The notes below the pieces were generated by a model that did no database searches, was not told where the DNA came from, and was given only the letters and a program-made list of their open reading frames with translations. A program made the translations under genes and the position numbers. Below are positions 37,230-38,749 of a DNA stretch of 64,000 nt, piece after piece. Positions within the stretch are counted from its first letter, which is position 1. Every line of letters begins with the position of its first letter. This stretch comes from a phage: the sequence record PZ445488.1; one strand, written 5' to 3'.

Positions 37230-37856
37230 TTACTTACGAGTTTTTGCATACTGAGCAGCGTCAGCAGCCAAACGACCTGCTTGTCGAAGTTTTTCTTTAA
37301 TCTCATCATGAAGTGGTTGAGTATACTTCAAACCTTCGATAGTCAAATAAAGACGATAAAGGTCTGGGGTATCAAGGTTGTTGATATGTTGGCCATTACG
37401 AAGACTATTGAATTCACGAACGAGTGAAGATGTATCAGATTCAATATCACGAACAAGCGAAGATAGTTGTTTATATTTTTTTTCCAGGCTAGAAGTATCA
37501 AACTTAAGAGCAGGAGCTTTAGGAGTTGCTTTTACTTCCGGCTTAGGCTCAGGTTTTGCTACTGCTTTAGGGGTCGCAGGTTTAGGAGTGGTAGGAGCAG
37601 GTTTTACTTTAGGCGAACCAGATTTAGCAGAAACACCACCACTAACAATATCTTTGAATGCTTTAGAAGCTCTGTAATATTCTTTTTGGCTGGAAGTGTC
37701 GATACCGTACATGGCTTGAACGTTTTTGAAAAACTCTGTACTAGTTTTTGTACCAGAAATAGCATCGTAAGCAGCTTGCCATTTCTCTTTTGTCATACGT
37801 ACACCGGCTTCGGTGATTACTTCCGTTTCGGCTAAAAATTCATTAAAAGTATACAT
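37230..37856 (-). CDS. internal-protein-like protein (CTS-like N-terminus, Pro/Lys-rich linker), late-promoter driven
   Basis: 208 aa; N-terminus MYTFNEFLAETEVITEAG; PKPATPKAVAKPEPKPEVKATPKAP low-complexity linker; TATAAATA upstream. Confidence 0.55.
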   Translation of the reverse strand: MYTFNEFLAETEVITEAGVRMTKEKWQAAYDAISGTKTSTEFFKNVQAMYGIDTSSQKEYYRASKAFKDIVSGGVSAKSGSPKVKPAPTTPKPATPKAVAKPEPKPEVKATPKAPALKFDTSSLEKKYKQLSSLVRDIESDTSSLVREFNSLRNGQHINNLDTPDLYRLYLTIEGLKYTQPLHDEIKEKLRQAGRLAADAAQYAKTRK

Positions 37857-37891: not shown

Positions 37892-37899
37892 TATTTATA
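37892..37899 (-). promoter_or_regulatory. T4-type late promoter TATAAATA
   Basis: Exact TATAAATA on minus strand ~36 nt upstream of ATG 37856. Confidence 0.5.
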
Positions 37900-37900
37900 C

Positions 37901-37928
37901 AAAAAAGCCCCAACCTTTCGGAAGGGGC
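37901..37928 (-). terminator. rho-independent terminator (GC hairpin + U6) at distal end of tRNA region
   Basis: GCCCC..CCTT-TCGG-AAGG..GGGGC hairpin followed by TTTTTT on minus strand. Confidence 0.55.
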
Positions 37929-37971
37929 TATATACCTTGTCGGGGTTTCCACCTACTAGGTAAGTGTTTGT

Positions 37972-38063
37972 ACGAAACGCCGGGATTCGAACCCGGTTAT
38001 TAAGCAGTTGACGCTACTCAATATTTTTAAAAGGCCATATCTCTACCATATCCGAACGTCCCG
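37972..38063 (-). ncRNA. tRNA-like element: canonical T-arm and acceptor 3' strand but no convincing cloverleaf (tRNA remnant or stable RNA)
   Basis: Minus sense CCGGG-TTCGAAT-CCCGG followed by CGTTTCG-T; possible 5' partner CGGGACG 85 nt upstream gives 92 nt; D and anticodon arms not convincing. Confidence 0.3.
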
Positions 38064-38231
38064 TCAAAAACGCTACTCGGCTTACGGCAAAGATATTTCC
38101 TCGAATCGATAATTCTGTGCGCCGTTTCTGCTGTGATGTAAGGGGATATTAACGAATCATAAAGATTTATTAAGACCAGTCCTTACTCAGGGAACATCAG
38201 TCCGACGACTTGCCGGTAGCGACCCGGCTTC

Positions 38232-38576
38232 TTATTTTGGCATATCATCAATTTGCTCTCGACGCCGATGCCATAGATTAATCGCTTCATAAACACATTC
38301 AGCATTTGGTATATGGCGACAATAGTATAGTGATTCGCGTTTCTGGAACCGATGTTGCAATGGGATTTCGTTTAAAAGGTCTTTACGGTCAAAGTATTCA
38401 AAACTAGTTAACCCGGAACGGTTTTTAAGAAACTTCCAATGGCCAAATTCATTTTGGAAATAAACGTAATCAGCGTGTTGATATAATGAATTAATCAACC
38501 GGTCGGAAATAACTGTATCCTGTTCGTTAAAATAAAACGTTAAATCATGAACTACCAGATAAATATTACCTTTCAT
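38232..38576 (-). CDS. hypothetical protein in tRNA region
   Basis: Start at ATG 38576 (MKGNIYLVVHDL...) with GAGGAAA SD; avoids overlap with tRNA-Arg. Confidence 0.45.
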   Translation of the reverse strand: MKGNIYLVVHDLTFYFNEQDTVISDRLINSLYQHADYVYFQNEFGHWKFLKNRSGLTSFEYFDRKDLLNEIPLQHRFQKRESLYYCRHIPNAECVYEAINLWHRRREQIDDMPK

Positions 38577-38594: not shown

Positions 38595-38671
<77 letters not shown>

Positions 38672-38674
38672 AAT

Positions 38675-38749
38675 TGGTGACCCTGGCTGGTTTCGATCCA
38701 GCTACCTATCAGTTATGAGCTGACAGCTCTCCCATTGAGCTACAGGGCC
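38675..38749 (-). tRNA. tRNA with CAU anticodon (Ile2-type as in T4, or Met), CCA encoded
   Basis: Minus strand GGCCCTG-TA-GCTCAATGGGAGAGC-T-GTCAG-CTCATAA-CTGAT-..-GCTGG-ATCGAAA-CCAGC-CAGGGTC-A-CCA; manual cloverleaf. Confidence 0.75.

Follow-up and report, generated by a model that had tools for sequence, protein, structure and literature searches.

The closest described system is the pair of RNAs called species 1 and species 2 in phage T4, which are encoded by rnaC and rnaD. Species 1 RNA was sequenced in the 1970s, and its precursors served as substrates of RNase P and RNase E. T4 mutants from which the tRNA region has been deleted still grow on laboratory hosts. The reference genome of T4 (NC_000866) annotates rnaC (70908-71046) and rnaD (71053-71171) as misc_RNA features after the gene for tRNA-Arg. 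RNAC of T4 has been seen by Northern blot and counted among the late RNAs, with no function assigned (PMC9697503), and both RNAC and RNAD have been treated as RNAs of unknown function (PMC3014915). The two genes have also been mapped in another T4-like phage, with a recurrent SNP in rnaD (PMC12685909).

The DNA analyzed here (the window) is a stretch of 64,000 nt from the phage record PZ445488.1, to which all coordinates refer unless T4 is named. It belongs to a Mosigvirus, a T4-type phage resembling RB69; Escherichia phage CEV1 has an identical region (100%), and other Mosigviruses match it at 96-99.7%. An initial annotation, made from the letters alone, had marked an orphan tRNA-like 3' end of 92 nt without a recognizable cloverleaf. 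The sequence motifs on which it was built are present on the minus strand exactly where it placed them, and the reduced tRNA cluster lies upstream:

37996-37980, minus strand: CCGGG-TTCGAAT-CCCGG, a T arm read from the sequence
37979-37973, minus strand: CGTTTCG, the 3' acceptor strand, followed by T at 37972
38063-38057, minus strand: CGGGACG, read from the sequence
38595-38749, minus strand: reduced tRNA cluster of tRNA-Met(CAT) and tRNA-Arg(TCT), found by ARAGORN and Rfam, upstream of rnaC

The exact GGTTCGAATCC occurs once in the 64 kb; when one mismatch is allowed, the sole further match is the T arm of tRNA-Arg (chance expectation, 0.75). As in a tRNA, this consensus T arm (37996-37980) abuts the 3' acceptor strand (37979-37973). 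ARAGORN found two tRNAs in the window, tRNA-Met at 38675-38749 and tRNA-Arg at 38595-38671, where eight are annotated in T4, and the same two were the only matches of Rfam at the gathering score (59.4 and 71.1 bits). With default settings, ARAGORN called no tRNA at the rnaC element and no tmRNA anywhere in the window. The Rfam tRNA model (RF00005) left the element unmatched even at E ≤ 10, and the sole match from the tRNA clan on it at that cutoff was tRNA-Sec (RF01852; 37972-38064; E = 7.4), whose score of 15.2 bits falls short of the gathering threshold of 47. No known RNA family was recognized at the site either at the gathering score or at E ≤ 10, and Rfam holds no family for rnaC. Because neither ARAGORN nor Rfam detects a tRNA on the element, the statement that there is no recognizable cloverleaf holds. 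A mere third tRNA, one of the outcomes that had been named as refuting the annotation, is ruled out, since the covariance models found no complete tRNA here. The extent of 92 nt, on the other hand, has to be revised. By itself, that piece has no folding advantage over shuffled sequence (z = −1.47), whereas the conserved unit of 139 nt (38109-37971) has a minimum free energy of −53.3 kcal/mol and z = −4.74.

We propose that this unit is the ortholog of T4 rnaC ("species 1"), a 139-nt non-coding RNA folded as a tRNA-shaped four-way junction, and we put the probability of this reading at about 0.9. The ends of rnaC and rnaD in the window were transferred from the T4 annotation, and nucleotide n of the RNA corresponds to window coordinate 38110 − n. 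The transcription unit contains, in addition to the tRNAs, the following features:

37971-38109, minus strand: rnaC ortholog, 139 nt, from alignment with NC_000866 70908-71046 and from the family model R1
38116-38235, minus strand: rnaD (species 2) ortholog, 120 nt, directly upstream of rnaC, from alignment with T4 71053-71171
37901-37970, minus strand: conserved 3' trailer (37929-37970) plus intrinsic terminator, closing the tRNA/rnaD/rnaC unit
37901-37928, minus strand: the terminator, with its stem at 37907-37928 and its U run at 37901-37906

Pairwise alignment showed that rnaC of the window and of T4 are identical at 136 of 139 nt. All three differences are neutral to the predicted structure: two keep the pairing (U-A versus U.G), and the third is at a position that is mismatched in most relatives. 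The order tRNA-Arg, rnaD, rnaC, trailer, and terminator is the same as in T4, the window aligning with it from rnaD through the terminator, and the minimum-free-energy (MFE) fold of rnaC is identical in the window, T4, and relatives. Apart from the three substitutions, the window differs from T4 in an open reading frame (ORF) that precedes rnaD and in the reduction of the tRNAs to Met and Arg. The supposed orphan tRNA end is the 3' two-thirds of rnaC: its T arm and acceptor strand are real, but they are parts of a 139-nt RNA. The option of a stable RNA like T4 species 1 or 2, which the initial annotation had listed among others, was thus the right one, rnaD lying directly upstream. The rnaC gene has been known in T4 for decades and is not a new kind of element. 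The comparative fold, the kissing loops, and the coupling of the T loop with a GG dinucleotide described below may be new, the older primary literature (1970s-80s) lying outside this comparison.

We gathered 38 distinct rnaC homologues from about ten genera of T4-like phages. RNAalifold, with 23 sequences as input, predicted a four-way junction of P1 to P4 with compensatory changes in 20 of 35 pairs. The named structure, including the pairs between the loops L2 and L3, was scored on 32 distinct sequences; 92.8% of the cells were paired, compared with 34-49% when the partners were slid by one to three columns, and 16 of 36 scored pairs carried two-sided changes that keep the pair, these covariation counts referring to sequences and not to independent events. 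A MAFFT alignment gave the same picture, and none of 500 shuffles reached the observed pairing values. The elements of the predicted fold are as follows:

38102-38108, minus strand: P1 5' strand (nt 2-8, CGAUUCG), the acceptor-stem equivalent, paired by RNAalifold with nt 131-137
37973-37979, minus strand: P1 3' strand (nt 131-137, CGUUUCG), from the sequence and RNAalifold
37971-37972, minus strand: A139 (37971) and the discriminator-like U138 (37972), 3' of P1
38032-38101, minus strand: P2, a 70-nt irregular hairpin (nt 9-78), from the MFE fold
38062-38067, minus strand: L2, the apical loop of P2 (nt 43-48, UUGACG)
38035-38036, minus strand: G74-G75, candidate equivalent of tRNA G18-G19, from comparison of 32 sequences
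38024-38031, minus strand: J2/3, an A-rich single-stranded linker (nt 79-86, UUUAAAAA)
37998-38023, minus strand: P3, a 10-bp hairpin (nt 87-112) where a tRNA would have its anticodon or variable arm
38008-38013, minus strand: L3, the loop of P3 (nt 97-102, CGUCAA), a perfect complement of L2
37980-37996, minus strand: P4, the T arm (nt 114-130, CCGGG-UUCGAAU-CCCGG)

In both the MFE fold and the RNAalifold structure, P1 leads straight into P4. Standard pairs occupy five of the seven positions of P1 in 32/32 distinct sequences, and the two U.U mismatches are invariant. The third pair is never broken; the 15 sequences of the T4/Mosig/Gapriver group have A-U here, and the other 17 have G-C. It is the sole covarying pair of P1 and reflects a single clade split. 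The stem of P4 is 100% paired, its middle pair alternating between G-C and U-A. In P3, 8 of 10 pairs change on both sides and 94% of the cells are paired. From base to tip, P2 consists of AGG/CCU, an internal loop AA/GG, a 14-bp helix, CCGA/UCGG, a GUA bulge, and the apical stem. Its basal pairs are invariant, and in the apical stem (columns 38-42/49-53) all five pairs change on both sides and pairing is 100%. The middle of P2 occurs as two unrelated sequence types, A and B, with a common architecture that includes a 3- to 4-nt bulge below the apical stem. The AAAAU core of J2/3 is nearly invariant across the family.

This fold bears on the 5' partner of the acceptor strand. CGGGACG, located 85 nt upstream of that strand, had been regarded as the only plausible one, but the RNA's own 5' end, CGAUUCG (38108-38102), pairs with the strand and has comparative support. 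CGGGACG (nt 47-53) comprises two nucleotides of L2 and the 3' strand of an internal hairpin, P2d, in which 5/5 pairs covary. Its pairing with the 3' strand shows no compensatory change, loses one of its pairs in 12 of 23 sequences, and breaks down in rnaC of type B and of the Marfa type. In T4 and the window, a duplex of CGGRACG and the 3' strand can be drawn and might exist as a minor conformer.

Within rnaC, the 9-mer GAGUAGCGU occurs twice on the minus strand, at nt 32-40 (38070-38078) and nt 91-99 (38011-38019); the repeat is absent from type-B sequences. The core of the repeat, (G)UAGCG, is a complement of the loop GUCGCUA in the 5' hairpin of rnaD, together with the first C of its stem (about 38215-38222, minus strand), a match that could indicate a contact between rnaD and rnaC or could be due to chance.

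Among the 38 distinct homologues, L2 and L3 are UUGACG/CGUCAA in 32 and UUGGCG/CGCCAA in 6, the latter being of the Marfavirus type. All six L2-L3 pairs are standard in 32/32 scored sequences; of these distinct sequences, 26 have A-U as the middle pair and 6 have G-C, and no one-sided change occurs. Both loops are more conserved than their own stems and than the T loop. No third variant was found in viral contigs, in scans with TTNNCG/CGNNAA and with the loops unconstrained, or in metagenomes with the loop-free pattern. The covariation, which amounts to a single evolutionary event in the Marfavirus clade, suggests a kissing-loop contact. A longer alternative helix of which L2 and L3 would be a part was ruled out, the complementarity ending exactly at the loop boundaries in 37/38 sequences; VPA32 alone extends it further. 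The kiss may form within one molecule or between two (dimer). Because P2 has about 27 bp and P3 has 10 bp, an intramolecular kiss would need a sharp bend in P2. Two hairpin loops also pair in the purine riboswitch (L2-L3) and between RNA I and RNA II of ColE1. In rnaC, the pairing comprises 6 complementary nt confined to the loops and shows one compensatory change, and unlike in those systems the two hairpins are very unequal (about 27 bp and 10 bp).

In tRNA, the elbow is held by the contacts G18:psi55 and G19:C56. In rnaC, the two nucleotides that immediately precede the 3' strand at the base of P2 (nt 74-75) are GG in all of the 29 sequences out of 32 that have a UUCRARY T loop, and they are CG in the remaining 3, in which the T loop is UGCAUSC (position 55, U → G). 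This coupling would fit a tRNA elbow in which P2 is a D arm with an insertion of roughly 60 nt; it rests on one or two events, with the P2 base remodeled in the same lineages, and should be taken as a lead only. The T loop has been replaced (UGCAUCC or UGCAUGC) in Serratia phage LC53 and a related lineage of Enterobacter phages, with L2 and L3 untouched. The loci concerned (L018 526-665, L103 5960-6099, and L148 4203-4342) have the change of GG to CG and the remodeled base of P2.

The distribution of rnaC was analyzed with R1, a covariance model built from 23 sequences and used to filter matches of pattern scans in viral, metagenome, and bacterial collections. In the window, R1 gave one match, full length, with 153.9 bits and an E value of about 3e-34. 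Full-length copies were found in Tequatro-, Mosig-, Gapriver-, Karam-, Moon-, Gelderland-, Winkler-, Kanagawa-, and Marfavirus, as well as in unclassified relatives and 13 metagenome contigs. A loose pattern used on viral contigs, TTCGAGGA..TTGRCG..CGYCAA, returned mostly noise, R1 keeping 5 of 100 searched among the matches listed. In the scan of bacterial genomes, R1 accepted none of the 78 loci that match the pattern, so no host homologue was found. By BLAST, the rnaD-rnaC region is present in about 800 phage records, and rnaC alone reaches more distant genera.

In most genera, rnaC lies between tRNA genes with spacers of about 5 nt. The arrangement is tRNA-Trp/rnaC/tRNA-Gly in Karam- and Gelderlandviruses and tRNA-Met/rnaC/tRNA-Gly in phage Moon. 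In Dhakavirus dhabil, R1 found no rnaC; rnaD and the trailer are kept, and the loss is clean, leaving no fragment. Like a tRNA gene, rnaC behaves as a self-contained module that phages acquire and lose. The Marfavirus-type loci (L017 600-745, from F48; L029, L076, L087, L164, and L243) encode CGUUCCG-U-CCA at the 3' end, where other members have U-ACA, and in F48 (L017), L076, and L087 rnaC does not abut a tRNA gene but is 60-65 nt from the nearest one. As to existing records, rnaC or rnaD is labeled in a few (T4, T4T, RB6, RB9, and Kha5h). The locus is labeled tRNA-Met in Enterobacter phage PG7 and tRNA-Phe in KKP_3262 (L003 1251-1345; H200), both mislabels, and LH01 carries over it lh_147, a "hypothetical protein" of 34 codons on the opposite strand (38008-38112, plus strand).

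Compared with rnaC, rnaD is restricted to Tequatro-, Mosig-, and Dhakavirus-like phages. Its 18 distinct homologues have conserved ends and a variable central hairpin, and they share the 5' hairpin CCGG-GUCGCUA-CCGG and a closing stem, GUCGUCG/CGGCG.C. The reverse complement of this 5' hairpin scores as a plus-strand terminator (38212-38228). A 114-codon ORF (38232-38576, minus strand; phrog_3355, function unknown) lies between tRNA-Arg and rnaD, and its stop codon overlaps the first nucleotides of rnaD. In T4, by contrast, the gene for tRNA-Arg is immediately followed by rnaD. The junction sequence CCAAAAUAAG is similar to the one that joins the CCA end of tRNA-Arg to rnaD in T4, a similarity that suggests insertion at the end of the tRNA. 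Searches of Pfam and PHROG with the three neighboring ORFs returned unknown-function families only, the 114-codon ORF having no significant Pfam match. Downstream, the trailer and terminator align with the sequences that follow rnaC in T4 and with those of dhabil, which lacks rnaC. The terminator was missed by a consensus scan because its stem contains two U.U mismatches. The trailer of roughly 40 nt (37929-37970, minus strand) has ACCU..AGGU repeats. It might be a processing signal or another small RNA. No T4 late-promoter motif TATAAATA was found directly upstream of rnaD or rnaC, and the two are therefore probably cotranscribed with the upstream tRNAs and the ORF. A late-promoter-like TATAAATA is located right after the terminator (37892-37899, minus strand), upstream of a gene with its ATG at 37856.

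Several other explanations of the element have to be considered. It could be a degenerate or unusual tRNA of class II or of the selenocysteine type, 92-95 nt long, with CGGGACG or ACGGGACG as the acceptor strand and P3 as the variable arm. The 7/7 standard pairs between CGGGACG and the 3' strand in the window and T4 agree with this, as does the tRNA-Sec match of 15.2 bits over 37972-38064; on the equivalent 95 nt, ARAGORN with default settings calls tRNA-Met(CAT) in PG7 and tRNA-Phe(GAA) in L020, and with lowered thresholds it draws such a cloverleaf on the window sequence. However, the "anticodon" varies among orthologues (CAT, GAA, or a 4-nt "ttta"), and in the forced cloverleaf the D and anticodon stems are mostly mismatched around a 4-nt "anticodon," unlike the arms of a tRNA. 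The acceptor pairing that this model needs shows no compensatory change, its 5' strand covarying with nt 38-42 instead, the Rfam tRNA model is unmatched, and tRNA-Sec scores far below the cutoff of 47. Moreover, the rnaC gap is empty in the tRNAscan-SE annotation of Erwinia phage COW86c, and T4 annotates an RNA of 139 nt, not of 92 nt. The ARAGORN calls on rnaC are false positives driven by the T arm, and we consider a tRNA of this kind very improbable. When the P2 insertion was deleted in silico, ARAGORN gave no tRNA at default, and with -ps80 it gave a poor call with P1 as the acceptor stem. The least probable explanation, to which we give almost no weight, is that recombination or deletion, in shrinking the cluster from eight genes to two, left a 3' fragment of a tRNA behind. 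The window does have two tRNAs where T4 has eight, and the T arm is a perfect tRNA consensus, but the same element is present in T4 despite its full cluster, and phages whose neighboring tRNAs number from 2 to 12 or more have kept the 139-nt unit over its full length. The 90 nt upstream covary with themselves and with the 3' strand, and in Dhakavirus dhabil the whole unit is cleanly absent, not fragmented. The two other options of the initial annotation, a degenerate tRNA and a recombination remnant, thus find no support in a 139-nt module that is conserved in many genera with differing flanking genes and in which 16/36 pairs covary.

A protein-coding origin is scarcely more credible than the fragment. 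The 34-codon ORF on the plus strand (38008-38112) exists, LH01 annotates it as lh_147, and many records have "hypothetical protein" under the match; however, the substitutions keep the RNA base pairs and not the reading frame, the alignment shows indels of one nucleotide within the region, at columns 58, 73, and 84, and T4 and several RB phages annotate rnaC, whose RNA was seen in T4 by Northern blot (PMC9697503). A more serious competitor, although still an unlikely one, is a structured spacer that folds or processes the polycistronic tRNA transcript or guards its 3' end and has no function once released. rnaC is always inside or at the end of a tRNA cluster, it has been cleanly lost in dhabil, and T4 remains viable on laboratory hosts when the tRNA region is deleted; these points favor a spacer. 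On the other hand, conservation in both loops and in the A-rich linker exceeds that of the T loop and of every stem, which is more than a mere spacer would need. The unit is also kept in the phage of the window and in Marfaviruses despite few nearby tRNAs, Marfa-type rnaC being 60-65 nt from the nearest one, and the RNA accumulates as a stable species in T4 (PMC9697503).

Judged from the sequences, the best reading is that rnaC would be a tRNA-shaped RNA excised from the tRNA transcript by the tRNA-processing enzymes of the host. The P1-P4 minihelix would make it a substrate for enzymes of tRNA maturation, namely, RNase P, those of 3'-end trimming, and the CCA-adding enzyme; RNase P would cut the 5' end, and removal of the trailer or of the next tRNA would make the 3' end. 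RNase P substrates of the minihelix class have a terminal stem of at least 7 bp stacked on a T stem-loop and an unpaired 3' tail; the predicted fold would offer this geometry in that P1 continues into P4, but P1 has two U.U mismatches, and CCA is encoded by the Marfa type alone. In most genera, where tRNAs lie within about 5 nt on either side, RNase P sites would be expected at or near both ends of rnaC. In this way, the RNA could be released precisely from the polycistronic tRNA transcript, and its tRNA-like end might keep it stable, like a natural "tRNA scaffold." The kiss of L2 with L3 would lock a compact body with no free anticodon, and hence the RNA would not decode. The conserved L2/L3, J2/3, and GG most likely bind a protein partner: such highly conserved loops, together with the A-rich linker and the GG, point to a specific partner that is probably a protein.

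Compared with tRNA (RF00005), rnaC has a consensus T arm that abuts a terminal stem of seven positions, a discriminator-like U, and a place in the tRNA cluster, and its GG may play the role of G18-G19. Unlike tRNA, it has no D or anticodon arm of normal size, no 7-nt anticodon loop, and two U.U in the acceptor-like stem; a 70-nt hairpin stands in for the D arm and an 8-nt linker for nt 26. Mimicry of the acceptor and T arm gives access to processing and stability in the tRNA-like domains of tmRNA and of bacterial YrlA/Y RNAs and in engineered "tRNA scaffolds," and by analogy rnaC would share their principle. It differs from tmRNA in having no coding tag, and most members are without the alanine identity pair G3.U70. 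The sole match of the Rfam YrlA model in the window at E ≤ 10 (16.2 bits; cutoff, 69) was on the true tRNAs and not on rnaC.

A bolder idea, which we regard as rather unlikely, is that rnaC is a "self-capped" tRNA mimic with the acceptor stem, the T arm, and possibly the elbow of a tRNA, in which a conserved kiss of 6 bp permanently ties the loop standing in for the anticodon to the insertion of about 60 nt in the D-loop equivalent, and that it could serve as a decoy or sponge for a tRNA-binding enzyme of the host or a tRNA-targeting anti-phage effector. Neither the fold nor a role of the decoy type was found in the literature searched, the primary reports of the 1970s-80s being outside its reach. 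If the idea is true, the self-capped mimic would enter the tRNA-processing and tRNA-binding machinery of the host without ever decoding.

Irrespective of its exact role, rnaC is a conserved RNA gene that is missed by tRNA finders and by Rfam, the records being blank at its position or labeled "hypothetical protein," tRNA-Met, or tRNA-Phe. A covariance model like R1 would correct the annotation in more than 800 phage records, and the terminal stem, the covarying kissing loops, and the coupling of the T loop with the GG provide testable handles on the function of rnaC.
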